IMG/VR virus record: IMGVR_UViG_2740892209_000010
Origin: a virus
Taxonomy: Duplodnaviria > Heunggongvirae > Uroviricota > Caudoviricetes
Strand: one strand, 5' to 3'
DNA length: 34,107 nucleotides
Shown: one piece after another, positions 4,347 through 27,061 of the stretch
Numbering within the stretch: position 1 is the first letter of the stretch
Layout: every line of letters starts with the position of its first letter
Program-made: the position numbers and the translations under genes
The notes under the pieces: model-generated
Seen by the model: the letters and a program-made list of their open reading frames with translations, nothing else
Databases searched by the model: none
What the model was told of the DNA's origin: nothing

Positions 4347-6621
4347 AGCCTCCGGGCGTTTTGTCCCTCCGTCAGCATTTGCTGCAGGCACCGGTAAGAC
4401 GTTTACCGGTGCTTATGCATGGAGCGCGCCACGCGAGGCTGTCGGGCGCGAAAGACCCCTTACACGTGACGAGATGCGTCAGGTGCAAGGTGTTTTATCC
4501 ACGATTAACCGCCTGCCTTACTTTTTGCGTTCGCTGTTTACTTCACGCTATGACTACATCCGGCGCAATAAAAGCCCGGTGCACGGGTTTTATTTCCTCA
4601 CATCCACTTTTCAGCGCCGTTTATGGCCGCGCATTGAGCGTGTGAATCAGCGCCATGAAATGAACACCGACGCGTCGTTACTGTTTCTGGCAGAGCGTGA
4701 CCACTATGCGCGCCTGCCGGGAATGAATGACAAGGAGCTGAAAAAGTTTGCTGCCCGTATCTCATCGCAGCTTTTCATGATGTATGAGGAACTCAGCGAT
4801 GCCTGGGTGGATGCGCATGGCGAAAAAGAATCGCTGTTTACGGATGAGGCGCAGGCTCACCTCTATGGTCATGTTGCTGGCGCTGCACGTGCTTTCAATA
4901 TATCCCCTCTCTACTGGAAAAAATACCGTAAAGGGCAGATGACCACGAGGCAGGCATATTCTGCCATTGCCCGTCTGTTTAACGATGAGTGGTGGACTCA
5001 TCAGCTTAAAGGCCAGCGTATGCGCTGGCATGAGGCGTTACTGATTGCTGTCGGGGAGGTCAATAAAGACCGTTCTCCTTATGCCAGTAAACATGCCATT
5101 CGTGATGTGTGTGCACGCCGCCAGGCAAATCTGGAATTTCTTAAATCGTGTGATCTCGAAAACAGGGAAACCGGCGAGCGCATCGACCTTATCAGTAAGG
5201 TGATGGGCAGTATTTCTAATCCTGAAATTCGCCGGATGGAGCTGATGAACACCATTGCCGGTATTGAGCGTTACGCCGCAGCAGAGGGTGATGTGGGGAT
5301 GTTTATCACGCTGACCGCGCCGTCAAAGTATCACCCGACACGTCAGGTCAGAAAAGGCGAAAGTAAAACCGTCCAGCTAAATCACGGCTGGAACGATGAG
5401 GCATTTAATCCAAAGGATGCGCAGCGTTATCTCTGCCGTATCTGGAGCCTGATGCGCACGGCATTCAAGGATAATGATTTACAGGTCTACGGTTTGCGTG
5501 TCGTCGAGCCACACCACGACGGAACGCCGCACTGGCATATGATGCTTTTTTGTAATCCGCGCCAGCGTAACCAGATTATCGAAATCATGCGTCGCTATGC
5601 GCTCAAAGAGGATGGCGACGAAAGAGGAGCCGCGCGAAACCGTTTTCAGGCAAAACACCTTAATCGGGGCGGTGCTGCGGGGTATATCGCGAAATACATC
5701 TCAAAAAACATCGACGGCTATGCACTGGATGGTCAGCTCGATAACGATACCGGCAGACCTCTGAAAGATACTGCCGCGGCTGTTACTGCATGGGCGTCAA
5801 CGTGGCGCATCCCGCAATTTAAAACGGTTGGTCTGCCGACAATGGGGGCTTACCGTGAACTACGCAAATTGCCGCGCGGTGTCAGCATTGCTGATGAGTT
5901 TGACGAGCGCGTCGAGGCTGCACGCGCCGCCGCAGACAGTGGTGATTTTGCGTTGTATATCAGCGCGCAGGGTGGGGCAAATGTCCCGCGCGATTGTCAG
6001 ACTGTCAGGGTCGCCCGTAGCCCGTCGGATGACGTTAACGAGTACGAGGAAGAGGTCGAGAGAGTGGTCGGCATTTACGCGCCGCATCTCGGCGCGCGTC
6101 ATATTCATATCACCAGAACGACGGACTGGCGCATTGTGCCGAAAGCTCCGGTCGTTGAGCCTTTGACTTTAAAAAGCGGCATCGCCGCGCCTCGGAGTCC
6201 TGTCAATAACTGTGGAAAGCTCACCGGTGGTGATACTTCGTTACCGGCTCCCACACCTTCTGAGCACGCCGCAGCAGTGCTAAATCTGGTTGATGACGGT
6301 GTTATCGAATGGAATGACCCGGAGGTTGTGAGGACGCTCAGGGGGGCATTAAAACACGGCCTGAAAACACCAAATCGTCAGCAAAGAAACGGAAGCCCGT
6401 TAAAACCACATGAAATAGCACCGTCGGCCAGACTGACCCGGTCGGAACGATTGCAAATTACCCGTATCCGCGTTGACCTCGCTCAGAACGGTATCAGGCC
6501 GCAACGATGGGAGCTTGAGGCGCTGGCGCGTGGCGCGACAGTAAATTATGACGGGAAAAAATTCACGTATCCGGTCGCTGATGAGTGGTCGGGATTCTCA
6601 ACAGTAATGGAGTGGACATGA
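4336..6621 (+). CDS. A: Rolling-circle replication initiator endonuclease A (HUH superfamily), 761 aa
   Basis: In-frame ATG at 4336 gives 761 aa (P2 A length) beginning MAIKASGRF. HUH motif TPHWHMMLF and double-tyrosine motif AGYIAKYISK read directly from the translation. Confidence 0.9.
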   Translation: MAIKASGRFVPPSAFAAGTGKTFTGAYAWSAPREAVGRERPLTRDEMRQVQGVLSTINRLPYFLRSLFTSRYDYIRRNKSPVHGFYFLTSTFQRRLWPRIERVNQRHEMNTDASLLFLAERDHYARLPGMNDKELKKFAARISSQLFMMYEELSDAWVDAHGEKESLFTDEAQAHLYGHVAGAARAFNISPLYWKKYRKGQMTTRQAYSAIARLFNDEWWTHQLKGQRMRWHEALLIAVGEVNKDRSPYASKHAIRDVCARRQANLEFLKSCDLENRETGERIDLISKVMGSISNPEIRRMELMNTIAGIERYAAAEGDVGMFITLTAPSKYHPTRQVRKGESKTVQLNHGWNDEAFNPKDAQRYLCRIWSLMRTAFKDNDLQVYGLRVVEPHHDGTPHWHMMLFCNPRQRNQIIEIMRRYALKEDGDERGAARNRFQAKHLNRGGAAGYIAKYISKNIDGYALDGQLDNDTGRPLKDTAAAVTAWASTWRIPQFKTVGLPTMGAYRELRKLPRGVSIADEFDERVEAARAAADSGDFALYISAQGGANVPRDCQTVRVARSPSDDVNEYEEEVERVVGIYAPHLGARHIHITRTTDWRIVPKAPVVEPLTLKSGIAAPRSPVNNCGKLTGGDTSLPAPTPSEHAAAVLNLVDDGVIEWNDPEVVRTLRGALKHGLKTPNRQQRNGSPLKPHEIAPSARLTRSERLQITRIRVDLAQNGIRPQRWELEALARGATVNYDGKKFTYPVADEWSGFSTVMEWT

Positions 6622-7073
6622 TGGCAAAAATTCACGAGGTAAAGCTGCACGCAAAATATTTCGACCTTGTGCTGGAAGGAAAGAAACGCGCAGAGTTTCG
6701 GAAAAATGACCGTAATTATGAGCGCGGGGACACGTTGATTTTGCATGAATGGGGGCAGGGTGTGTATACGGGGCGAAAGGTTGAAGCCCGGATAACAGAT
6801 GTTACTGACCTGTCAGACTGGCTGGAAGATTATGTCTTGCTAAGTATTGAGCTGCTTAATACAGGCGCATATGAGATTGTGAACTGGAAAGAACTTAGTG
6901 AGCGTGGTCTGTTATTCAGAATTAATCATGAAATTATGCATAAGCTCGGCCTTGCTGTTATGTATGAACCAGAGACGGGAATGTCTGGCGGGGCAATGGT
7001 TGCCACGGATGGAGCATGGAACTATTCAGATGAACAGATGGAGCGTGCACAGCAAAACGGGTGGCTTGGATAA
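6618..7073 (+). CDS. ASCH/PUA-like (DUF3850-like) protein, P2 orf91 position
   Basis: ATGATG at 6618 overlaps the stop of A and has a GGAGTGG RBS. N-terminal MAKIHEVKLHAKYFDLVLEGKKRAEFRKNDR resembles the DUF3850/ASCH fold family (from memory). Confidence 0.6.
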   Translation: MMAKIHEVKLHAKYFDLVLEGKKRAEFRKNDRNYERGDTLILHEWGQGVYTGRKVEARITDVTDLSDWLEDYVLLSIELLNTGAYEIVNWKELSERGLLFRINHEIMHKLGLAVMYEPETGMSGGAMVATDGAWNYSDEQMERAQQNGWLG

Positions 7074-7350: not shown

Positions 7351-7508
7351 TTGACATTCATATTTTTACTGCGTTGGTGCTGTTTTTTGACGGTTGAAAG
7401 GAGTTATCTCGGAGAGCTAAAGCTAACAACTTACAAATATTCAAAAGTAAGCTTCCTGTTGCTAACATAAGGTCGATTTTTTATGTGGATGATGCAAAAA
7501 GGATAGCT

Positions 7509-8240
7509 ATGGATACTATAATCGCTTTTCTATCACTCGCTTTTTTTGTTGCTTTTTTCATCGGGTTAATCAAGCCATCACTGGTGCGAATGCCAAGCCG
7601 CAAACGTGCAAGTGCGGTTTATCTCGGAGGAGGTTTTGTATTGAGCATAATTGGTTCAATACTCTATCCAACAGAAAAAAGCCAGCCAGTTGCTAAAACT
7701 GAAACATCAACCGTTGTAGAACACCAAGTCCAAAAAACATTCGAATATGGTGAAAAAACACTCAAGGAATATCGGAGCGAGCCAAAGAAAACTCGACACG
7801 ATATTGTGAATAGTTACATTGACTTTAAGAAAGTTCCAGTCACCGCATCAGATGCATTTTATGCCTGCATGAGTGAGTATACATTTACCAAAGATGATGA
7901 GTTGAAACTCGGTGATGTTCTTGGGTGGTGCTTTAATGATTATGAAAATGACCCGAGTTCACTAAATAATAAAATCAATCTTGATACATTTCAGAGTAAT
8001 TTTAGTGGTTGGGATGGTTCTTATCGTCCATTGGAAAAACTAATTAAAGATAATATGAACGATGATTCATCTTATAAACATGTATCAACGGTATATCATT
8101 TAGTTTTGAATAAAGACCCGCACGCCATTGTGAAAACGACGTTTCGCGGCACTAATGCTTATGGTGGCATGGTCAAACAGACTGTAGCAGCGCGAGTTGA
8201 CGTGCGAACGGGTGAGATCGATTCAATACTCGACAATTAA
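7509..8240 (+). CDS. Accessory cargo protein 1: predicted membrane protein with two N-terminal TM helices and a ~190-aa C-terminal domain of unknown function (243 aa)
   Basis: ATG at 7509 with AAGGA RBS at 7497..7501 (the ORF track starts at an upstream GTG, 7485). Hydrophobic stretches TIIAFLSLAFFVAFFIGLI and AVYLGGGFVLSIIGSILY. Strongly AT-rich relative to the phage backbone. Sits in the P2 tin/old position between replication genes and cos. Confidence 0.75.
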   Translation: MDTIIAFLSLAFFVAFFIGLIKPSLVRMPSRKRASAVYLGGGFVLSIIGSILYPTEKSQPVAKTETSTVVEHQVQKTFEYGEKTLKEYRSEPKKTRHDIVNSYIDFKKVPVTASDAFYACMSEYTFTKDDELKLGDVLGWCFNDYENDPSSLNNKINLDTFQSNFSGWDGSYRPLEKLIKDNMNDDSSYKHVSTVYHLVLNKDPHAIVKTTFRGTNAYGGMVKQTVAARVDVRTGEIDSILDN

Positions 8241-8261: not shown

Positions 8262-8322
8262 CAGTGATGAAACTTGCTTTTAGTCTTGGCGGGGTTGAGC
8301 AATGAGTCTTGCAAGGTGTTAG
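8262..8322 (+). repeat. Cassette leader repeat, copy B (~61 bp)
   Basis: Homologous to 7290..7350 (~75% identity). Its 3' end supplies the AAGGTG RBS (8313..8318) for the gene starting at 8324. Confidence 0.6.
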
Positions 8323-8323
8323 C

Positions 8324-8980
8324 ATGCGTAGAATGGAAGCTGCTTGGACGTGGGGTATTCATATGAATTTAAAAATTTTCGGCATAATTGTCCTTTCTGC
8401 TTTGATGTTCGTTTTAGGTTTTTTTCTCGGTGGTTTTAATTGGGAATGGGCTGATAAGAATTATGCAGGTGAGGTGGCGTTGTGGAGTATGTTAGGAGGG
8501 TGGTTATCCGCAATTGCAACTCTGTTTGCCGTGTTGGTTTCATTATATATGGCGTATCAAGCTACTCAGAATGAGATTGAAAAAATCAGGGTTACTCATG
8601 GAGTAAGTATGAGTGTCACTCATGACAATGAGTTAAGTTGTAATCTCATTATTCAGAACTTGAGAAATATGAAAGTGAATATTACTGGTGTTTTTTTGTC
8701 TCTAGGTAAATCATCAGGTAAGTACTCTTTGGATAAAGTAATTGACAATCGTAATATAACGCTTTCATATAAAGGTGAAACAGAAAAGGTACAATTTGTA
8801 ATCCATTCTGGGTATATTTGGTGGTCAATGTATAAATTATTCGATATGGATAAGAACATAGGTTTTGAAAAGGGTAAGATCTTGATAACAACCAACCTCA
8901 ATACATATAAATTTGATTTGCCAAAAGAATATTTAAGAGCTTTTGAGAAAGCTTATTCGGAGTATCAGACAAAAAAATAA
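8324..8980 (+). CDS. Accessory cargo protein 2: predicted membrane protein with two N-terminal TM helices and a ~130-aa C-terminal domain of unknown function (218 aa)
   Basis: ATG at 8324 six nt after AAGGTG. Hydrophobic stretches LKIFGIIVLSALMFVLGFFLGGF and WLSAIATLFAVLVSLYMAY. AT-rich. Lies immediately upstream of cos. Confidence 0.75.
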   Translation: MRRMEAAWTWGIHMNLKIFGIIVLSALMFVLGFFLGGFNWEWADKNYAGEVALWSMLGGWLSAIATLFAVLVSLYMAYQATQNEIEKIRVTHGVSMSVTHDNELSCNLIIQNLRNMKVNITGVFLSLGKSSGKYSLDKVIDNRNITLSYKGETEKVQFVIHSGYIWWSMYKLFDMDKNIGFEKGKILITTNLNTYKFDLPKEYLRAFEKAYSEYQTKK

Positions 8981-9297: not shown

Positions 9298-10332
9298 TCA
9301 GCCGTTGTCAGTGTCCAGTGAGTAGTTTTTAAAGCGGATGACCTCCTGACCGAGCCAGCCGTTTATCTCGCGGATCCTGTCCTGTAACGGGATAAGCTCA
9401 TTGCGGACAAAGACCTTTGCCACTTTCTCAATATCACCCAGCGACCCGACGTTCTCCGGCTTGCCGCCCATCAACTGAAAGGGGATGCGGTGCGCGTCCA
9501 GCAGGTCAGCGGCGCTGGCTTTTTTGATATTAAAAAAATCGTCCTTCGTCGCCACTTCACTGAGGGGGATAATTTTAATGCCGTCGGCTTTCCCCTGCGG
9601 GGCATAGAGAAACAGATTTTTAAAGTTATTGCGGCCTTTCGACTTAACCATGTTTTCGCGAAGCATTTCGATATCGTTGCGATCCTGCACGGCATCGGTG
9701 ACGTACATGATGTATCCGGCATGTGCGCCGTTTTCGTAATACTTGCGGCGGAACAGCGTGGCCGACTCATTCAGCCAGGCAGAGTTAAGGGCGCTGAGAT
9801 ATTCCGGCAGGCCGTACAGCTCCTGATTAATATCGGGCTCCAGCAGGTGAAACACGGAGCCGGGCGCGAAGGCTGTCGGCTCGTTGAAGGACGGCACCCA
9901 CCAGTAAACATCCTCTTCCACGCCACGACGGGTATATTTTGCCGGTGAGGTTTCCAGTCTGATGACCTTACCGGTGGTGCTGTAGCGCTTTTCCAGAAAC
10001 GCATTACCGAACACCAGAAAATCCAGCACAAAGCGGCTGAAATCCTGCTGGGAAAGCCACGGGTGCGGGATAAACGTTGAAGCCAGAATATTACGTTTGA
10101 CGTAAATCGGTGAGCTGTGATGCACGGCAGCACGCAGACTTTTTGCCAGACCGGTAAAGCTGACCGGCGGCTCATACCATCTGCCGTTACTGATGCATTC
10201 GACGTAATCCAGAATGTCACGGCGGTCGAGTACCGGCACCGGCTCGCCAAAGGTGAATGCCTCCATTTTCGGGGCGATGGCGGTCATGGTTTTTGCCGCA
10301 GGTTGCGGTGTTTTCCCTTTTTTCTTGCTCAT
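9298..10332 (-). CDS. Q: Portal protein Q, 344 aa
   Basis: 344 aa equals P2 Q; minus strand, first gene after cos; start overlaps the stop region of P. Confidence 0.9.
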   Translation of the reverse strand: MSKKKGKTPQPAAKTMTAIAPKMEAFTFGEPVPVLDRRDILDYVECISNGRWYEPPVSFTGLAKSLRAAVHHSSPIYVKRNILASTFIPHPWLSQQDFSRFVLDFLVFGNAFLEKRYSTTGKVIRLETSPAKYTRRGVEEDVYWWVPSFNEPTAFAPGSVFHLLEPDINQELYGLPEYLSALNSAWLNESATLFRRKYYENGAHAGYIMYVTDAVQDRNDIEMLRENMVKSKGRNNFKNLFLYAPQGKADGIKIIPLSEVATKDDFFNIKKASAADLLDAHRIPFQLMGGKPENVGSLGDIEKVAKVFVRNELIPLQDRIREINGWLGQEVIRFKNYSLDTDNG

Positions 10333-12104
10333 CAGTAAAACTCCAGAATGGTGGATGTCAGCGGGGTGCTGATACCGGCGGTGAGTGGCTCATTTAACAG
10401 AGCGTGCATGGTCGCCCAGGCGAGGTCGGCGTGGCTGGCTTCCTCGCTGCGGCTGGCCTCATAGGTGGCGCTGCGTCCGCTGCTGGTCATGGTCTTGCGG
10501 ATAGCCATAAACGAGCTGGTGATGTCGGTGGCGCTGACGTCATATTCCAGACAGCCTCGGCGGATAACGTCTTTTGCCTTGAGCACCATTGAGGTTTTCA
10601 TTTCCGGCGTGTAGCGGATATCGCGCGCGGCGGGATAGAACGAGCGCACGAGCTGGAACACGCCGACACCGAGGCCGGTGGCATCAATCCCGATGTATTC
10701 AACGTTATATTTTTCGGTGAGTTTGCGGATGGATTCCGCCTGGGTGGCAAAGTCCATGCCTTTCCACTGGTGACGCTCAAGTATTCTGAATTTGCCACCG
10801 GCCACCACCGGCGGTGCCAGCACCACGCATCCGGCGCTGTCGCCACGGTGTGACGGGTCGTAACCAATCCAGACCGGGCGGGAGCCGAACGGATTGGCGG
10901 CAAAGGGTGCATAGTCTTCCCATTCTTCCAGCGTGTCGACCATGCAGCGTTGCAGCTCCTCGAACGGGAACACCGATGCCTTGTCGTCAACAAATTCACA
11001 CATGAACAGGTTTTTAAAATCGTCGGCGCTGTTTTCGCGTTTGAGCTGCTCAATGTCGAACAGCGTGCAGCCGCCTTTCAGGGCGTCCTCAATGGTGACA
11101 ATCTGCCGCCACTGGCCGTCCGCACAGAGAAGCCCACCGGCAAGGGCGTTATGACTGACGTCGATTTCCACGCGTTCGGCGGCGCTGGCGCGTCCCCGGT
11201 TGAACAGTTCACCCGACCAGAACGGGTAGGCGTCGTGCGCCAGCGTGGACGGGGTGGAGAAATAGGTCGAGCGCAGGTGACTCTGTGAGGCCATACCTGA
11301 TGCCACCTTACGCAGTACCTGAAAATTCGGGATCCAGAAAATCTCGTCGACGTACAGGTCGCCGTTATGGCTCTGCGCGGTGTTGGAGTTGGTGCCGAGA
11401 AAAATCAGTTTTGCGCCGTTATTGCCCAGGACAATCGGGTCACCGGTCAGGTCAACGTCAACCAGACGGGCAAAGGCGATGATGTATTCGCGGAACACAT
11501 ACGCCTGCGTTTTACTGGCCGACAGAAAAATCTGGTTATGACCGGTTTTCAGGGCGCGCAGCAGCGCCTCGCGGGAAAAATAAAACGTCGCGCCAATCTG
11601 ACGGGATTTCAGGATATCGCGGATGCGGTGCTCAAGCCCGGCGCGATACCAGTGCAACTGATAGTCGAAAGACTGCTCAAAGAAAATCTGCTCCAGCTTT
11701 TCGATGGCTTCGTCGCTGAAAAAATTCTTTTTCGGTATGCGCCGCCCGCCTTTGTTGCGGTTAGCGACGTTCGGATTAAGGTCTGCCTCGTTGCCGGTCT
11801 GACTGTAACGGTTTACCCGTGCCAGTCGTTCAATCTGGCGTCCGAGCAGGTCAATTTCCTTGAAGTCACCGCCGGTTTTCTGCGGTTTGATGATGAGCTG
11901 GGTCAGCCGCGCTTCCAGACTCATTTCGACACGGCTGATGGGGGCAACGCTGTCCCAGCCGTCGCGCTGTTTCCAGCTCTGCACCGTCGGGCGTTTCATC
12001 TGCAACATGGCGGCAATCTGCGGCACGGAAAACCCCTGCCAGTACAGCAGCGCCGCCTGACGACGCGGGTCGTGTAAAAGAGTGGTGTCTGTGGTGATGG
12101 TCAT
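10332..12104 (-). CDS. P: Terminase large subunit P (ATPase/nuclease), 590 aa
   Basis: ATG at 12104 (minus) gives 590 aa starting MTITTDTTLLHD (P2 P length). The ORF track extends 10 codons further upstream. Confidence 0.9.
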   Translation of the reverse strand: MTITTDTTLLHDPRRQAALLYWQGFSVPQIAAMLQMKRPTVQSWKQRDGWDSVAPISRVEMSLEARLTQLIIKPQKTGGDFKEIDLLGRQIERLARVNRYSQTGNEADLNPNVANRNKGGRRIPKKNFFSDEAIEKLEQIFFEQSFDYQLHWYRAGLEHRIRDILKSRQIGATFYFSREALLRALKTGHNQIFLSASKTQAYVFREYIIAFARLVDVDLTGDPIVLGNNGAKLIFLGTNSNTAQSHNGDLYVDEIFWIPNFQVLRKVASGMASQSHLRSTYFSTPSTLAHDAYPFWSGELFNRGRASAAERVEIDVSHNALAGGLLCADGQWRQIVTIEDALKGGCTLFDIEQLKRENSADDFKNLFMCEFVDDKASVFPFEELQRCMVDTLEEWEDYAPFAANPFGSRPVWIGYDPSHRGDSAGCVVLAPPVVAGGKFRILERHQWKGMDFATQAESIRKLTEKYNVEYIGIDATGLGVGVFQLVRSFYPAARDIRYTPEMKTSMVLKAKDVIRRGCLEYDVSATDITSSFMAIRKTMTSSGRSATYEASRSEEASHADLAWATMHALLNEPLTAGISTPLTSTILEFY

Positions 12105-18033: not shown

Positions 18034-18484
18034 GTTTAAGCGTTTTGAAGACCGGCTGACCGGACTGATTGAGTCGCTGTCACCGTCAGGGCGTCGGCGA
18101 CTGGCGGTAGATATTGCGAAGAAGCTGCGCCAGCGCCAGCAGCAGCGAATTAAATTACAAAAAGCCCCGGATGGTACGCCGTATGTACCGAGAAAAAACC
18201 AACCAGTACGAAATAAGAAAGGCCGGATAAAGCGGGAAATGTTTGTGAAATTACGCACTAACCGGTTTATGAAAGCAACAGGTAGCGAGAGTGCGGCGGT
18301 GGTGGCGTTTGCCAGCGGAGTACAACGAATTGCGCGAGTACATCAATTAGGGCTTAGGGATAAGCCGGGGCGTAATAGTGCTGTGGTGGAATATCCTGTT
18401 CGTGAGTTATTTGGTTTTGACAAGGAATCTATACAATTGATAGAAAGGGAGTTATTAGTGATTCTATCGAAAGATGTTATATGA
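18026..18484 (+). CDS. S: Tail completion protein S, 152 aa
   Basis: Length close to P2 S (150 aa). The last ~35 codons are AT-rich like the downstream insert. Confidence 0.8.
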   Translation: MNEFKRFEDRLTGLIESLSPSGRRRLAVDIAKKLRQRQQQRIKLQKAPDGTPYVPRKNQPVRNKKGRIKREMFVKLRTNRFMKATGSESAAVVAFASGVQRIARVHQLGLRDKPGRNSAVVEYPVRELFGFDKESIQLIERELLVILSKDVI

Positions 18485-19236
18485 GACGGGTGTTTGTGGA
18501 TAAAAAGTTTTCCATTTTGAGAAAAAGAGTAAAGCATTCTCAAAAGAAAGTTATGGATTGTATTATTGCTGACCATAATGCTGATATATGTGTGTTATGC
18601 GGGAGTTCTGACGATATTACTCGTGAGCACATTATTCCTCAGTGGGCCTTTGAGTCAAATGCTGAAAAATCTTTAATTAATAAAAAGAATAATCAGTCAA
18701 CTCATTACATTAAAGCCACTGTACCAGCATGCAGAGTGTGCAATTCTGATTTGCTGGGAGTGTTTGAGTATAACCTGAAGAAATTTCTTACGGAAAAGAG
18801 GGGGGAGGAGTTAACAGATTATGAGTATGATTGCATCATATGGTGGTTGCAATACATGGGTTTTAAGTTGCAATTAATGGATTTGCGGAACCGCTTTCTC
18901 AGGTATAAAGGTGGTGATTATATCTCGTTCCTTGCAAACTTCCCGGTTGCAATGTTTTGGGGGAATGTCGATACGACGCCGGGGGATGTCTTCAGGATTA
19001 TACGAAAATCGCGACACAATCTGATGTCGAAATGGAAGGATAAAAAACATAATTCCTTGATGGTTTTTGAAACATCAAACAAGAGTTTTCATTTCTTTCA
19101 TAAGGTTGATGAATTTATTTTTATTGAAATGCCTCAGGTTAAGAAGGCGTTTTTCTTCTTTTTTAATAAAGAATTTGACAGCCATGATTTAGCTCATGAG
19201 GAGTGTATGAAGATTATAGAGAAGTGCTACAACTAA
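18481..19236 (+). CDS. HNH-motif protein (putative HNH endonuclease with ~150-aa C-terminal domain of unknown function), 251 aa; accessory gene at S/V junction
   Basis: ATGA overlap with the S stop. CVLCGSSDDITREHIIPQ ... NNQSTHYIKATVPACRVCN gives a CxxC ... EH ... N ... H ... CxxC arrangement typical of HNH nucleases. Very AT-rich. Occupies the position of the P2 moron orf30. Confidence 0.7.
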   Translation: MRRVFVDKKFSILRKRVKHSQKKVMDCIIADHNADICVLCGSSDDITREHIIPQWAFESNAEKSLINKKNNQSTHYIKATVPACRVCNSDLLGVFEYNLKKFLTEKRGEELTDYEYDCIIWWLQYMGFKLQLMDLRNRFLRYKGGDYISFLANFPVAMFWGNVDTTPGDVFRIIRKSRHNLMSKWKDKKHNSLMVFETSNKSFHFFHKVDEFIFIEMPQVKKAFFFFFNKEFDSHDLAHEECMKIIEKCYN

Positions 19237-21739: not shown

Positions 21740-23869
21740 ATGAGCACAAAATTCAGAACCGTTATCACCACTGCCGGTGCAGCAAAGCTGGCAGCGGCAA
21801 CCGCGCCGGGAGGGCGGAAGGTCAACATTACCACGATGGCCGTCGGGGATGGCGGTGGTAAATTGCCTGTCCCGGATGCCGGACAGACCGGGCTTATCCA
21901 CGAAGTCTGGCGACATACGCTGAACAAAATCAGCCAGGACAAACGAAACAGTAATTATATTATCGCAGAGCTGGTTATTCCGCCGGAGGTGGGCGGTTTC
22001 TGGATGCGAGAGCTTGGCCTGTACGATGATGCGGGAACGTTAATTGCCGTGGCGAACATGGCCGAAAGTTATAAGCCAGCTCTTGCCGAAGGCTCAGGGC
22101 GTTCGCAGACCTGCCGCATGGTCATCATCGTCAGCAGTGTGGCCTCAGTGGAGCTGACCATTGACACCACAACGGTGATGGCGACGCAGGATTACGTTGA
22201 TGACAAAATTGCAGAGCATGAACAGTCACGACGTCACCCGGACGCCTCGCTGACCGCAAAAGGTTTTACTCAGTTAAGCAATGCGACCAACAGCACGTCT
22301 GAAACACTGGCCGCAACGCCGAAAGCGGTAAAGGCCGCCTATGACCTGGCTAACGGGAAATATACTGCGCAGGATGCCACCACCGCGCGAAAAGGTCTTG
22401 TCCAGCTCAGTAGTGCCACCAACAGTACGTCTGAAACGCTCGCCGCAACACCAAAAGCGGTAAAGGCCGCGTATGACCTTGCTAACGGGAAATACACTGC
22501 ACAGGACGCCACCACAGCGCGAAAAGGTCTTGTCCAGCTCAGTAGTGCCACCAACAGTACGTCTGAAACGCTCGCCGCAACACCAAAAGCGGTAAAGGCC
22601 GCGTATGACCTTGCCAACGGGAAATACACTGCACAGGACGCCACCACAGCGCGAAAAGGTCTTGTCCAGCTCAGTAGCGTCACCAACAGCGATTCTGAAA
22701 CGCTTGCGGCAACGCCAAAGGCGGTAAAGGTCGCGTATGACCTTGCTAACGGGAAATACACTGCACAGGATGCCACCACAGCGCGAAAAGGGCTTGTTCA
22801 GCTCAGTAGCGCCACCAACAGTGATTCGGAAACGCTGGCCGCAACACCAAAAGCGGTGAAGTCTGCCTATGACAATGCTGAAAAACGTCTTCAGAAAGAT
22901 CAGAACGGTGCGGATATTCCTGATAAAAGATTATTCCTGCGCAATATTGGAGCAACAAATTCAACAACCATGTCTTTTAGTGGTGGTACAGGATGGTTCA
23001 GGCTGGCAACTGTAACCATGCCACAGGCCAGTTCCGTGGTTTACATAAGCCTGATTGGTGGTGCTGGATATAATGTTAACTCCCCTATGCAGGCTGGTAT
23101 ATCTGAACTTGTTCTTCGTGCGGGAAATGGAAATCCAAAAGGTCTTACTGGTGCGTTATGGCGACGGACCTCGGTTGGATTTACTAATTTTGCATGGGTG
23201 AATACATCCGGTGATACCTATGACATTTATGTAGAAATAGGTAATTACGCCACAGGTGTTAATATCCAGTGGGATTATACAAAGGATGCAACTGTACAAA
23301 TTCATACATCACCAATTTATACAGCGAATAAACCAACAGGCCTGACAGATGGAACTGTATATGTAATTTACAGTTCGCACATTAAACCGACTGCTGCTGA
23401 TGTTGGGGCGTTGTCATTATCTGGAGGTCAATTGAATGGTGCACTGGGCATCGGAACATCCAGTGCTCTTGGCGGTAACTCGATTGTTTTGGGTGATAAT
23501 GACACGGGCTTTAAACAAAATGGCGACGGTAATCTGGATGTTTATGCTAATAACGTTCATGTTATGCGCTTTGTCTCCGGTAGCATTCAAAGTAATAAAA
23601 CCATAAATATTACGGGGCGTGTTAATCCCACAGATTACGGTAACTTTGATTCCCGCTATGTCCGGGATGTCCGGCTTGGTGGTGCTGCCACATACAAACC
23701 TGCGAACAATGGCATGACATGGACACATCAGGCACCGTCCGGGTGTGTATATTCCGGCATTATTGTTCAGGATACCGGCTCAAACTCTGCCGATAACATT
23801 GGTGGCGTATATTACAGACCGGTTCAGAAATACATTAACGGGACATGGTATAACGTGGCGCAGGTATAA
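21740..23869 (+). CDS. H: Tail fibre protein H, 709 aa, with internal 44-aa tandem repeats
   Basis: Position after I. Conserved GC-rich N-terminal part, repeat array, then an AT-rich C-terminal part. P2 H is 669 aa; the 40-aa difference is close to one repeat unit. Confidence 0.85.
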   Translation: MSTKFRTVITTAGAAKLAAATAPGGRKVNITTMAVGDGGGKLPVPDAGQTGLIHEVWRHTLNKISQDKRNSNYIIAELVIPPEVGGFWMRELGLYDDAGTLIAVANMAESYKPALAEGSGRSQTCRMVIIVSSVASVELTIDTTTVMATQDYVDDKIAEHEQSRRHPDASLTAKGFTQLSNATNSTSETLAATPKAVKAAYDLANGKYTAQDATTARKGLVQLSSATNSTSETLAATPKAVKAAYDLANGKYTAQDATTARKGLVQLSSATNSTSETLAATPKAVKAAYDLANGKYTAQDATTARKGLVQLSSVTNSDSETLAATPKAVKVAYDLANGKYTAQDATTARKGLVQLSSATNSDSETLAATPKAVKSAYDNAEKRLQKDQNGADIPDKRLFLRNIGATNSTTMSFSGGTGWFRLATVTMPQASSVVYISLIGGAGYNVNSPMQAGISELVLRAGNGNPKGLTGALWRRTSVGFTNFAWVNTSGDTYDIYVEIGNYATGVNIQWDYTKDATVQIHTSPIYTANKPTGLTDGTVYVIYSSHIKPTAADVGALSLSGGQLNGALGIGTSSALGGNSIVLGDNDTGFKQNGDGNLDVYANNVHVMRFVSGSIQSNKTINITGRVNPTDYGNFDSRYVRDVRLGGAATYKPANNGMTWTHQAPSGCVYSGIIVQDTGSNSADNIGGVYYRPVQKYINGTWYNVAQV
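22253..22880 (+). repeat. Tandem 132-bp (44-aa) repeats inside tail-fibre gene H, about 4.7 copies
   Basis: Units begin at 22253, 22385, 22517, 22649 and 22781 (last partial). Peptide unit ARKGLVQLSSATNSTSETLAATPKAVKAAYDLANGKYTAQDATT; units 2 and 3 are almost identical at nucleotide level. Confidence 0.85.
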
Positions 23870-23872
23870 TTT

Positions 23873-24400
23873 ATGCAGCATTTGATAAATATAACGGTGG
23901 GTAATCCAAAAACGGTTGAACAATATCAATTGACAAAGGACTTTGATGTTGTCTGGTTTTTTTCAGAAGATGGTAAGAACTGGTACGAAGAACAAAAGTA
24001 TTTTGCTGATGACACGATAAAAATAGCGTACGACAAAGATAATATTATCCGCTATGTGGAAAAGGATGTGACAGCTATCAGACCAGATGGATTAAGTGTT
24101 GTTGAAGTGCCGGATATTACCGCTAACCGACGGGCGGACATTTCAGGGAACTGGATGTTTAAAGACGGCACAGTGATTAAACGAATTTATACGGCGGAGG
24201 AATTGCAGCAGCAGGCAGAAAATCGGAAAGCCAGACTTCTTGCAGATGCTGAATCCGTGATTTTGCCGCTGGAGCGTGCTGTCAGGCTGAATATGGCAAC
24301 AGATGAGGAACACAGCCGACTGGAGGCTTGGGAACGCTATAGCGTTCTGGTCAGTCGTGTGGATCCTGCAAATCCTGAATGGCCGGAAATGCCGCAATAA
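23873..24400 (+). CDS. G: Tail fibre assembly chaperone G, 175 aa
   Basis: 175 aa equals P2 G; immediately after H. Confidence 0.8.
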
Positions 24401-24451
24401 GTTGTATGAGCTCTGGTGGGAGCTTACATATCTATGGCACAGAGTAAAGCC

Positions 24452-24487
24452 TAATCTGACAGTCCGCTCTGTGCCAAAAACGGACAT
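24452..24487. repeat. Left copy of 36-bp inverted repeat bracketing the G-FI accessory cassette
   Basis: Reverse complement of 24452..24487 aligns to 25653..25688 with 30/36 identities, including a 12-bp perfect block (gactgtcagatt). Confidence 0.6.
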
Positions 24488-24604
24488 GTCAAAGCGCAGA
24501 GTGAATGGCTAAGTCTAGCTCATTAGAAATGTTCGCTTCATGAAAATGGCTGCAGCAAGGATCTATCTCACTGCGGCCTCTTTACAATAACGAAATTTTG
24601 CGAG

Positions 24605-25360
24605 CTATTCCTTGGCCTCTTTATTTTTCTCGCCATCGCCAATGTAAAGAAGATAATCGTTTAAGGATATCCTTCCGGAGGGGCCGGTCCATGTTATCAA
24701 TCCGTTCTCACGAAGATTAAATAATGCTTCCATGAACTCATTATCGTTAAAAGAATGATCCTCTGAGAACAGAATGTTCATTTTTCTCAATAGTTCTTCC
24801 ACTTTAATCTTTTCATATCGCCTTATCAGACTTAGTGCTTTACGACGCATTAAGATTGTAGGTACTGCTTGTGAACGAATGGTTTTTTGTATTCCACTAT
24901 CAAGAACTTTCTTGATCTTGCTCTCTAACTCTTTGATTTTAGTTTCATTATCTCCATTGGACTTAAGCTTTTCATCAACGATGCAAATAATTTCCTGACT
25001 AATGCTGTTCTTGAGGTTGTTTATTTTTTCTTCATTGTTGAGAATCTCATCAGAGCTTCCTGCATGGGGTTTTTTCCATATGTGCTGACGCATATCCGTT
25101 ACCGTATCTCTCATCATAGAGAATGTATCTGAATATAACTTGTCAAATATTTTTTCCAGTCGTTCGACACTTGCCTGGATGTCTTTTGCTGCTTTAGTTG
25201 TCTCTTTAGAAGCCTCATTCGACATTTTATAAAAAACAAAAGAAAGCCAAATAGCCCCAATGGCGAGTACTAATGAGGCTATTGTGGCAATAAAACCTAT
25301 TATTGTTATTGCTGTATCTAATGTGCCTGCTGCATCTGTGACTACTGTTTCTGCTGCCAT
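24605..25360 (-). CDS. Accessory cargo protein 3: N-terminally membrane-anchored, coiled-coil-rich protein of unknown function, 251 aa; opposite strand to the flanking tail genes
   Basis: Minus-strand ATG at 25360 with GAGGA RBS. One hydrophobic helix (TAITIIGFIATIASLVLAIGAIWLSFVFY) followed by a highly charged Lys/Glu-rich region. AT-rich. Occupies the P2 Z/fun position between G and FI. Confidence 0.75.
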   Translation of the reverse strand: MAAETVVTDAAGTLDTAITIIGFIATIASLVLAIGAIWLSFVFYKMSNEASKETTKAAKDIQASVERLEKIFDKLYSDTFSMMRDTVTDMRQHIWKKPHAGSSDEILNNEEKINNLKNSISQEIICIVDEKLKSNGDNETKIKELESKIKKVLDSGIQKTIRSQAVPTILMRRKALSLIRRYEKIKVEELLRKMNILFSEDHSFNDNEFMEALFNLRENGLITWTGPSGRISLNDYLLYIGDGEKNKEAKE

Positions 25361-25652
25361 ATATCCTCAATATTTAACCATACAGGGTAGCGTGTTTTAA
25401 CCGCGGGGAAGTCGGGGTGGTGACACCCTAGCCTTACCCCGATTCCAGAGTATTTATTTATCATACCATTGAAACTATTTAATTTTATCGAAAATTTTGT
25501 CAGAGCGTGACTGAAAAGTCTTCAGCACGTCAAGCATATCGTCGCCGTTCAATTAACACTGAGCCTTTTCTTAGAGGGGTGGGCTGCGCAGTTGCGAGGT
25601 TATGCCCCAGTTCCTAGTTCCTCACTACATTCTAATTAAGCCGGCCAACTAA

Positions 25653-25688
25653 ATGTCCGCTTTTCGCTCAAAGCAGACTGTCAGATTT
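25653..25688. repeat. Right copy of 36-bp inverted repeat bracketing the G-FI accessory cassette
   Basis: atgtccgcttttcgctcaaagcagactgtcagattt; 83% identical to the reverse complement of 24452..24487. Confidence 0.6.
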
Positions 25689-25870
25689 GATAGCGTTTGG
25701 GCTATGTAAATTGTCAGTTGGAAAATGAGTGAGTGCAAATCATGGCAGGCTGGCGGATTACCCGCCTTTTCTTTGTCTGTTGTTTCATCCCCTGACCAGC
25801 CAGGTCAAATAGCGTCTCATGCTCTGCACAACAGAAAATAGTTGCACCCATTAACCACGGAGTTAAACGG

Positions 25871-27061
25871 ATGAGTGACTATCATCACGGCGTGCAGGTG
25901 CTGGAGATTAACGACGGCACCCGCGTCATTTCCACCGTATCCACGGCCATTGTCGGCATGGTCTGCACGGCCAGCGATGCGGATGCGGAAACCTTCCCCC
26001 TCAATAAACCGGTGCTGATTACTAATGTGCAGAGCGCAATTGCAAAGGCCGGTAAAAAAGGCACGCTGGCGGCGTCGTTACAGGCCATCGCTGACCAGTC
26101 AAAACCGGTCACCGTTGTTGTGCGCGTGGAAGACGGCACCGGCGACGACGAGGAAACGAAACTTGCGCAGACCGTTTCCAATATCATCGGCACCACCGAC
26201 GAAAACGGTCAGTACACCGGACTGAAAGCCCTGCTGGCGGCGGAGTCGGTAACCGGTGTTAAACCGCGCATTCTCGGTGTGCCGGGACTGGACACCAAAG
26301 AGGTGGCTGTTGCACTGGCATCAGTCTGTCAGAAGCTGCGCGCTTTCGGGTATATCAGCGCATGGGGCTGTAAGACCATTTCCGAGGTGAAAGCCTACCG
26401 CCAGAATTTCAGCCAGCGTGAGCTGATGGTCATCTGGCCGGATTTCCTCGCATGGGATACGGTCACCAGTACCACCGCCACCGCGTATGCCACCGCCCGT
26501 GCGCTGGGGCTGCGTGCCAGAATCGACCAGGAGCAGGGCTGGCATAAAACGCTGTCCAATGTCGGGGTGAACGGTGTTACCGGCATCAGCGCATCTGTAT
26601 TCTGGGATTTGCAGGAGTCCGGCACCGATGCTGACCTGCTTAACGAGTCAGGCGTTACTACGCTGATTCGCCGCGACGGTTTCCGCTTCTGGGGTAACCG
26701 TACCTGCTCTGATGACCCGCTGTTCCTCTTTGAAAACTACACCCGCACCGCGCAGGTGCTGGCCGACACGATGGCTGAGGCGCACATGTGGGCGGTGGAC
26801 AAGCCCATCACCGCAACGCTGATTCGCGACATCGTTGACGGCATCAATGCCAAATTCCGTGAGCTGAAAACAAACGGCTATATCGTGGATGCGACCTGCT
26901 GGTTCAGCGAAGAATCCAACGATGCGGAAACCCTCAAGGCCGGCAAACTGTATATCGACTACGACTATACACCGGTGCCTCCTCTTGAAAATCTGACCCT
27001 GCGCCAGCGTATTACTTCCAGATACCTGGCAAGTCTGGTCACTTCGGTTAACAGCAATTAA
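25871..27061 (+). CDS. FI: Tail sheath protein FI, 396 aa
   Basis: 396 aa equals P2 FI; CACGGAG RBS; followed by the tube gene. Confidence 0.9.
   Translation: MSDYHHGVQVLEINDGTRVISTVSTAIVGMVCTASDADAETFPLNKPVLITNVQSAIAKAGKKGTLAASLQAIADQSKPVTVVVRVEDGTGDDEETKLAQTVSNIIGTTDENGQYTGLKALLAAESVTGVKPRILGVPGLDTKEVAVALASVCQKLRAFGYISAWGCKTISEVKAYRQNFSQRELMVIWPDFLAWDTVTSTTATAYATARALGLRARIDQEQGWHKTLSNVGVNGVTGISASVFWDLQESGTDADLLNESGVTTLIRRDGFRFWGNRTCSDDPLFLFENYTRTAQVLADTMAEAHMWAVDKPITATLIRDIVDGINAKFRELKTNGYIVDATCWFSEESNDAETLKAGKLYIDYDYTPVPPLENLTLRQRITSRYLASLVTSVNSN

Follow-up and report, generated by a model that had tools for sequence, protein, structure and literature searches.

Why does one gene point against all of its neighbours in the late region of a P2-like phage, and what might its product do? 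These questions are raised by IMG/VR record IMGVR_UViG_2740892209_000010, a stretch of 34,107 nucleotides (nt) that is called the window here. The window is a P2-like (Peduovirus) prophage, with integrase, A, Q/P, capsid, lysis and tail genes and with ogr adjoining yegQ. Between the tail-fibre assembly gene G and the sheath gene FI it carries an open reading frame (ORF) for 251 amino acids, termed the cargo gene below, which alone lies on the minus strand, whereas the late genes around it are all on the plus strand. An earlier note on this DNA had proposed the ORF as a candidate exclusion or abortive-infection (Abi) factor. As judged from its other copies, the gene is best read as a self-contained moron, brought into the G-FI slot by a cassette of 1.2 kb with a hairpin at either end. 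That it encodes a single-gene sensor-effector factor for exclusion or abortive infection, expressed in the lysogen, is plausible, and the case is circumstantial; we advance it tentatively, inferring the function from context.

Alignment with P2 delimits the insertion. Backbone homology stops at about 24485 and restarts at about 25652, and the cargo therefore amounts to about 1.17 kb. About 291 bp of cargo-specific DNA lie 5' of the ATG, in agreement with the approximately 290 bp of upstream sequence noticed earlier; the gap from the ATG to FI is 510 bp in full, and the P2 pF promoter region is kept upstream of FI (about 25652-25870). The other first impressions of the locus also held: the lone gene is AT-rich (GC content of 0.36-0.37 vs 0.55-0.61 in the flanks) and has its own ribosome-binding site (Table 1), and P2 fun(Z), which encodes 528 amino acids, occupies the identical place between G and FI, likewise on the reverse strand. 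In other P2-like prophages of Escherichia coli, the slot is filled by a restriction endonuclease, a DUF4145 protein, a DUF6615 protein and others, and this G-FI (Z/fun) slot is recognised as a hotspot for accessory and defence genes (10.1101/2024.10.15.618418; PMC13586616).

By its substitution pattern and its homologues the ORF is a real gene. A chance ORF is excluded because the overall ratio of nonsynonymous to synonymous substitution rates (dN/dS) is 0.18-0.19 (Nei-Gojobori, vs Citrobacter and Serratia orthologues), because an indexed search found 351 homologues at E<=1e-3, and because an exhaustive profile search found 697 clusters at 50% identity, nearly all of them 200-260 amino acids long and of the same layout. 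The 351 homologues are all named hypothetical or bear spurious coiled-coil names; exonuclease VII, DivIVA, RmuC and V-ATPase H, as given in databases, are coiled-coil artefacts. The sole family match is phrog_36054 (E 1.2e-174, positions 1-251 of 251), a PHROG without functional annotation. Pfam, NCBIfam and PDB sequences were searched both with the protein alone and with a profile of its family, but nothing significant emerged, and matches to DHC_N1, FUT8_N_cat, apolipoprotein and large T antigen were rejected as spurious, being sub-threshold or coiled-coil noise. In BLASTP against P2 Fun(Z) (NP_046777), the best match had an E of 8.7 across 12 residues, which is no homology, and at the sequence level the cargo protein is unrelated to Fun(Z). 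The earlier note had failed to place the protein by eye and had allowed that high identity to Fun(Z) or to a characterised protein would make it known rather than new; no such identity was found to Fun(Z), and Pfam, NCBIfam, PADLOC and PDB yielded no characterised family.

Two variants of the layout were seen among the homologues. A few longer members have an extra Pfam domain (PF12872, OST-HTH/LOTUS, in P0075 and P0090; PF25212 in P0055), which suggests domain accretion or swapping. The Thiorhodospira sibirica homologue (L015 9980-10654) is split into adjacent ORFs of 113 and 110 amino acids and is probably a decaying copy with a frameshift or premature stop.

Architecture of the cargo protein

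The protein is divided into a transmembrane (TM) helix, a juxtamembrane (JM) helix, a charged linker and a C-terminal domain (Table 1). The single N-terminal TM helix recognised earlier is recovered by hydropathy, the best 19-residue Kyte-Doolittle window spanning residues 18-36 with a score of 2.41. Seven of its residues are invariant (S29, L30, A36, I37, W38, L39 and F43), and small residues (A25, S29, A33, A36 and S40) form a stripe along one face. The segment preceding the helix is short, variable and acidic. Lysine and arginine are more numerous after the helix than before it in 58 of 58 members; by the positive-inside rule, this predicts an N-out/C-in topology with most of the protein in the cytoplasm. 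The product would be a bitopic inner-membrane protein with few residues outside, one TM helix and the remainder in the cytoplasm.

The JM helix is the most conserved part of the protein, with the invariant residues I61, R67, L68, E69, F72, L75, Y76, D78, T79, F80, M82, M83, T86, V87, D89, M90, R91 and W95. The long charged middle region described earlier is also present and helical: 25 of the 70 residues at positions 96-165 are charged, and this linker is probably a coiled coil. Conservation lies in the TM and JM helices, not in the charged region.

In the AlphaFold2 (AF2) model, residues 168-240 make up a C-terminal winged-helix domain. Its topology of helices (H) and strands (b), H1-b1-H2-H3-b2-b3, matches that of solved winged helices, with Foldseek target TM-scores of <=0.78, and a weak Pfam match to MCM4_WHD (E 0.0012) covers the same domain; on the model, the fold can be taken as real. 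The ORF ends in ...GLITWTGPSGRISLNDYLLYIGDGEKNKEAKE, identical to the sequence of the C-terminal segment quoted in the earlier note; the letters stand, and the description is to be amended in that AF2 and Foldseek make this segment part of the winged-helix domain. The 'recognition' helix H3 is acidic (net charge -3, family mean -0.4), the wing has a charge of 0 (family mean -1.5), H1 alone is basic and the whole domain has a net charge of about +1. In the model, an acidic H3 and a non-basic wing fit protein binding better than DNA reading, which is suggestive, not decisive, and the winged helix is likely a protein-binding sensor. Selection is graded along the protein: dN/dS is 0.017-0.035 at residues 18-95, 0.09-0.19 in the linker and 0.26-0.43 in the winged helix, the fastest-evolving part.

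HK97 gp15 is a moron-encoded inner-membrane superinfection-exclusion protein. A similar block at DNA entry, as with HK97 gp15 or P22 SieA, could be the function of the cargo protein if its TM and JM helices bound an inner-membrane translocation component or incoming tape-measure or pilot proteins. Such a role would suit a predicted inner-membrane protein that is present in several unrelated temperate phages, whose constrained part is the membrane module and whose gene in inoviruses lies in the repressor-side, lysogeny-expressed region; known exclusion proteins are also inner-membrane moron products (PMC10883804). However, the periplasmic part consists of 0-17 variable residues, and contact with a tail tip would therefore be possible via the TM helix only. 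Moreover, a mere block of entry would leave about 200 cytoplasmic residues with a diversifying winged helix unaccounted for, and occurrence in phyla with very different envelopes argues against a single entry factor. Exclusion at DNA entry is considered quite unlikely.

The hairpin-bounded cassette and its control sequences

The cargo is enclosed by an inverted repeat of 35 nt, whose arms are 86% complementary and 1165 nt apart. Both arms hold a 24-nt hairpin GTCCGC...GCGGAC, with a free energy of -19.8 kcal/mol (z -4.15 on the gene strand) for hairpin A and -15.3 kcal/mol (z -3.6) for hairpin B. P2, P2-EC67 and the window have three distinct cargoes, the common backbone extending through the hairpins and divergence beginning just inside them; 'left/right inverted repeat' is already labelled at the P2 Z locus in GenBank AJ512685.

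Copies of the cassette elsewhere have closely similar limits. Against the window, a lambdoid copy (L001) aligns over 24435-25679 with 98.6% identity by blastn and over 24462-25679 with 99.3% by megablast, a copy in a DnaB-type lambdoid prophage (L063) over 24462-25674 with 96%, one in the S-V slot of another P2-like phage (L064) over 24471-25669 with 83%, and that of Citrobacter koseri over 24466-25668 with 89%; the S. oryzae copy aligns over 24517-25695 with 80% and does not reach the left hairpin. The family member in the S-V slot (L064 10001-10756) is 84% identical to the cargo protein of the window. Judged by these homology spans, the same cassette moves between P2-like slots, lambdoid prophages and other Enterobacterales, and the gene is not special to the G-FI slot.

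The hairpins are also found with other contents. In an E. coli strain without the gene, both are kept in the same lambdoid slot, with unrelated DNA of about 245 bp between them. A module of 66 nt (hairpin, spacer of about 18 nt, hairpin) is repeated three times in L063 between successive cassettes (9655-9716, 10876-10941 and 11775-11840), and homologous boundary hairpins also occur at about 700-1000 of L058. Of 5426 complete E. coli genomes, 1045 have this junction module, which is always intergenic. At 8 of 8 sampled sites it separates single accessory genes, the setting being a P2 slot, a lambdoid slot or an island with an integrase, and the cargo at these sites includes AbiH plus SIR2, and restriction endonuclease / SIR2 plus ATPase. 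The hotspot and the inverted repeats are known, and the protein family is uncharacterised; mobility from hairpin to hairpin across phage types appears to be undescribed in the literature searched.

Putative control sequences travel within the cassette, as about 310 bp of upstream sequence are co-mobile with the gene. The promoter predicted from an extended -10-like element (Table 1) is kept in the E. coli, C. koseri and S. oryzae copies and reads TGaTATTAT in Buttiauxella; a consensus promoter scan gave a weaker overlapping candidate only (25503-25474), and such scans were not above shuffle expectation. The gene is probably transcribed alone, against the late operons, from this predicted promoter about 93 nt upstream, and would therefore be expressed in the lysogen.

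A conserved leader block follows the pattern GGTAA(A/G)G.T.GGGTGTCAC..CCCCGA..CGCGG, about 40-80 nt 5' of the start codon. Matches at -74 to -87 come from 11 of 53 family loci, that is, from every Enterobacterales copy with its own leader, on any carrier, and the block is retained even in copies with saturated synonymous sites; a twelfth, weaker match is at -24 in Alcanivorax, the match rate in shuffled sequences being 0.3%. An RNA fold in the leader is unsupported (alifold -5.7 kcal/mol, 0 compensatory pairs; z-score -0.2), and an Rfam scan of the intergenic regions gave no match. The block may be a binding site for a protein or small RNA. A leader peptide was rejected because the 40-amino-acid ORF at 25342-25464 is disrupted by an indel in C. 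koseri. On the other side of the gene, the terminator-like hairpin begins 27 nt past the stop codon and is kept in the C. koseri and S. oryzae copies. In the backbone 5' of FI, a GC-rich hairpin with a T-run (GGCGGATTACCCGCC TTTTCTTTGT; 25752-25766, plus strand) is also present in P2 and P2-EC67 and may be a terminator that shields the F operon from the cargo slot.

Table 1. Features of the G-FI slot and its cargo in the window (MFE, minimum free energy; pLDDT, predicted local distance difference test)
Feature	Positions	Strand	Evidence
Cargo coding sequence, 251 amino acids, phrog_36054 member	24605..25360	-	ATG start; full-length profile match; purifying selection
Predicted single transmembrane helix, codons 18-44	25229..25309	-	Hydropathy; column conservation; AF2 pLDDT 93-95
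Predicted juxtamembrane helix, codons 45-95	25076..25228	-	Mean commonest-residue frequency 0.89; alignments
Variable charged helical linker, codons 96-165	24866..25075	-	AF2 helices 104-133, 139-163; conservation 0.44
Predicted C-terminal winged-helix domain, codons 166-240	24641..24865	-	AF2 pLDDT 82-86; Foldseek; weak Pfam match
Mobile cassette, 1.2 kb (hairpin, leader, gene, terminator-like hairpin, hairpin)	24462..25678	-	Homology span of other copies
Inverted-repeat left arm, with boundary hairpin A GTCCGCTCTGTGCCAAAAACGGAC (24462-24485)	24453..24487		Repeat search; backbone boundary
Inverted-repeat right arm, with boundary hairpin B GTCCGCTTTTCGCTCAAAGCAGAC (25655-25678)	25653..25687		Repeat search
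Predicted promoter, extended -10-like element TGgTATGAT	25460..25468	-	About 93 nt upstream of ATG
Conserved non-coding leader block, GGTAAGGCTAGGGTGTCAC...CCCCGA...CGCGG	25401..25438	-	Alignment of upstream regions
Shine-Dalgarno sequence GAGG	25365..25368	-	4 nt 5' of ATG; invariant in 8 aligned upstream regions
Terminator-like hairpin, GGCCGCAGUGAG...CUUGCUGCAGCC then AUUUUCAU	24540..24578	-	MFE -17.9 kcal/mol, z -2.6
Left neighbour, tail-fibre assembly gene (P2 G equivalent)	23873..24400	+	Pfam Caudo_TAP E 1.8e-34; RefSeq annotation in near-identical prophages
Right neighbour, tail sheath gene FI	25871..27061	+	P2 comparison; RefSeq annotation

Other variable regions of the window were also noticed. 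The S-V slot holds another ORF of 251 amino acids (18481-19236, plus strand) without a Pfam or PADLOC match. In the A-Q (old/tin) hotspot there are three plus-strand ORFs (6585-7073, 7485-8240 and 8309-8980), one for a DUF3850/ASCH plus DUF7415 protein and two, of 251 and 223 amino acids, without Pfam or PADLOC matches. The tail-fibre gene H (21740-23869) includes about 5 tandem units of about 44 amino acids (...TAQDATTARKGLVQLSSATNSTSETLAATPKAVKAAYDLANGKY...) at about 22250-22860; the fibre gene is 2130 bp long here vs 2319 bp in an otherwise near-identical O177:H21 prophage, and the repeat number seems to differ.

Carriers of the family and its candidate function

The family is sparse and patchy, being carried by 36 of about 185,000 species representatives from the Proteobacteria, Bacteroidota, Ignavibacteriota, Actinomycetota, Acidobacteriota, Chloroflexota and Campylobacterota. 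In E. coli, the gene is found in 10 of 5426 genomes (10 of the 1044 that match the window); of 70 matching phage records, 3 have it. Such rarity among close relatives of the phage, together with a deviant base composition, is characteristic of morons. No conserved neighbour or partner gene was found within +-6 kb at about 38 loci.

In Enterobacterales and some Betaproteobacteria, nearly every copy of the gene is carried by a mobile element. It occupies the P2 G-FI slot in phages P22H4 and 9W, in 7 E. coli genomes and in 4 IMG/VR contigs, and a near-identical cassette is present in the lambdoid slot between DUF977 and hokD. Relatives with 56-89% identity are located at prophage ends (as in C. 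koseri), in the terS-terL gap (on the opposite strand, in Serratia marcescens), beside HipBA, on IncF plasmids (in Klebsiella, beside an ISNCY transposase) and in inoviruses. The inovirus-associated copies are from Alcaligenes, Pectobacterium, Citrobacter braakii and E. coli, and in the last two the gene follows an HTH_3 repressor on the same strand. At L003, L007, L009/L010 and L055, a member lies within or next to a filamentous (inovirus) prophage that has Zot, secretin, g8p and Rep, that of L010 being placed between two tandem prophage copies. The DUF4145 protein that is G-FI cargo in other E. coli strains adjoins a family member in an S. marcescens prophage (L052 10143-10724), and the two genes may circulate together.

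An inovirus gene captured by P2 was considered and rejected: the 36 species-representative loci are without a common Zot-like neighbour, and inoviruses are therefore one vehicle among several. A scan for Zot markers, which covered eight IMG/VR loci only, gave 0 matches.

This range of carriers bears on whether the gene serves the carrier element, be it through regulation of lysis or assembly at the membrane, anchoring of replicating DNA, or an addiction-type toxin. The frequent link with filamentous phages, whose entire life cycle involves the inner membrane, is in keeping with such service, and the long conserved leader hints at tight control after initiation. On the other hand, the gene is carried by at least 4 unrelated element types; it is missing from nearly all P2-like phages (3 of 70 matching phage records have it) and from most inoviruses, and therefore belongs to no core programme; 251 amino acids are far above the size of type I toxins, and a conserved antitoxin partner is lacking. 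Cassettes with the same hairpins hold unrelated genes, and this gene is therefore not the mobility factor of its cassette. A role in the service of the element is very unlikely. More narrowly, a holin or type I membrane toxin was rejected on size (251 amino acids vs <~150 or <60), with the lysis genes located elsewhere (about 15.8-17.5 kb) and no Rfam match.

A role in defence against other phages is favoured because of the slot, the moron-like independence of the gene, its presence on at least 4 kinds of mobile element, its sparse and patchy distribution, the predicted cytoplasmic location of most of the protein and the lack of a partner gene, because the vehicle is common to bona fide defence genes (AbiH, SIR2 and restriction), and because a conserved membrane module combined with a variable winged helix is the pattern expected for an effector plus a sensor. 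In such a mechanism, the protein would act as a single-gene sensor-effector that protects the lysogen: the diversifying winged helix, held on its charged stalk, would recognise a phage protein or a phage-altered host protein, and recognition would be relayed to the near-invariant TM and JM module. This module would then self-associate in the inner membrane or act on it, leading to abortive infection or exclusion.

Several observations weigh against a role in defence. PADLOC-DB 2.0.0, which the earlier note had recommended as a check, includes no model with a significant match to the cargo protein (best PDC-M49B, E 0.4), and literature searches by accession, PHROG id and motif were negative, both for the papers open to searching and for the supplements of DefensePredictor. 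Hotspot cargo also includes partition systems, toxins and receptor-binding modules (PMC9122126; 10.1101/2024.10.15.618418). Among the +-2 neighbours of copies in distant taxa, housekeeping or metabolic genes predominate; integrases account for 2 of 121 and PADLOC matches are sporadic, and enrichment in defence islands is therefore not seen there. The Limnohabitans copy, for example, lies between EF-P/EarP and sulfur-transport genes. The conservation of the TM and JM helices across phyla could equally reflect binding to a universal host membrane machine in a non-immune role. With a pLDDT of 48-73 in the helical part and a predicted template modelling score (pTM) of 0.33, the AF2 model does not pack this part into a confident tertiary structure, which makes oligomerisation and pore formation conjectural. 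The model became no better when the alignment was deepened to 114 sequences, and the unpacked monomer would be compatible with an oligomeric coiled coil.

Some of these points lead to a lysogenic-conversion or accessory membrane protein without a defence role. The protein could tether a conserved host cytoplasmic protein to the membrane via the winged helix, thereby recruiting or sequestering it, or the TM and JM helices could modulate a universal inner-membrane machine, with effects on envelope physiology, stress tolerance or division. Distant members that stand singly among housekeeping genes, without mobile-element or defence signal, are what such a protein would be expected to show; the extreme TM and JM conservation from Actinomycetota to Bacteroidota is in line with a universal partner in the cell, the winged helix seems suited to binding protein, and hotspots hold non-defence cargo too. 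The family is nevertheless very sparse, as the counts for species representatives and E. coli genomes show, its carriers in Enterobacterales are almost exclusively phages and plasmids, its vehicle is that of Abi, SIR2 and restriction cassettes, and the rapid evolution of the C-terminal domain would be unusual for a housekeeping interaction. A non-defence role is possible, though somewhat unlikely.

The role in defence can also be joined with the mobility of the cassette in a broader proposal, namely that the family is an unrecognised cross-phylum anti-phage sensor-effector and that, in enterobacteria, it is cargo of an integron-like hairpin-cassette system that shuttles AbiH, SIR2, restriction enzymes and this gene between the slots of P2-like and lambdoid phages and islands. 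This combination is regarded as doubtful. If the cargo protein is protective, it would represent a compact, partner-free defence family of 251 amino acids with a near-invariant membrane module and a diversifying winged-helix sensor, and a tractable system for studying how recognition in the cytoplasm reaches the membrane. If it has no part in defence, it remains a widespread membrane protein under strong constraint, repeatedly carried by phages. The hairpin-to-hairpin cassettes, with a junction module found in about one of every five complete E. coli genomes, offer a testable handle on rapid cargo exchange among P2-like phages, lambdoid phages and islands.

Relation to known systems

Integron cassettes and palindromic units of the bacterial interspersed mosaic element (BIME) or repetitive extragenic palindrome (REP) type resemble the hairpin cassettes in that imperfect palindromes flank single genes, promoter-bearing or promoterless, successive cassettes are separated by pairs of palindromes, and one cargo replaces another in a fixed slot. 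Unlike those of integrons, the hairpins are by inspection without the attC R'/R'' GTTRRRY cores, no integron integrase is nearby, and the slots are located inside phage genomes and islands. The only integrase within the window is the prophage Int (757-1770), and by attC and intI criteria the cargo cassette does not appear to be an integron cassette.

As for the C-terminal domain, protein-binding winged helices (cullin WHB, the RPA32 C-terminal domain, kleisin and ESCRT-II) are 6-17% identical to it and give no specific subfamily signal, and DNA-binding ones (PadR, MarR, MecI and RosR) score equally well. Winged helix-turn-helix regulators of the PadR/MarR/MecI type differ in having a basic or polar recognition helix and a DNA-contacting wing, in contrast to the charges of -3 in H3 and 0 in the wing here.

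P2 Fun(Z) shares with the cargo gene the G-FI slot, the reverse orientation, the same inverted-repeat hairpins and the status of non-essential lysogenic-conversion cargo, whereas its product is 528 rather than 251 amino acids long and has no sequence similarity. Fun(Z) blocks the growth of T5 and confers sensitivity to 5-fluorodeoxyuridine (FUdR), traits that belong to Fun(Z), and has itself no PADLOC model. Position in the slot is uninformative on mechanism. P22 SieA (PMC10883804) is similar as an inner-membrane product of independently transcribed cargo within or next to the late-gene regions of temperate phages. The same is true of HK97 gp15. HK97 gp15 and P22 SieA nevertheless differ in that they are unrelated in sequence, act at DNA entry and are without a large cytoplasmic stalk and winged helix.

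Parallels in architecture are AbiP of Lactococcus and PdpSau of S. aureus prophages, which are single genes without a partner in prophage or accessory locations and encode an N-terminal TM anchor plus a cytoplasmic C-terminal domain, the layout predicted for the cargo protein. Their C-terminal domain is a positively charged nucleic-acid binder that resembles an oligonucleotide/oligosaccharide-binding (OB) fold, in contrast to the helical stalk and acidic-H3 winged helix here, and PdpSau is predicted to be N-in, whereas the cargo family is predicted to be N-out/C-in. No sequence relationship to AbiP or PdpSau was found by any search (Pfam, NCBIfam, PADLOC and PDB), and the architecture is best taken as analogous, not homologous. 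Both are single-gene prophage Abi proteins with an N-terminal TM helix and a cytoplasmic binding domain, and PdpSau alters membrane potential and permeability upon infection (PMC10127798); a role of the cargo protein in defence is supported by this precedent.

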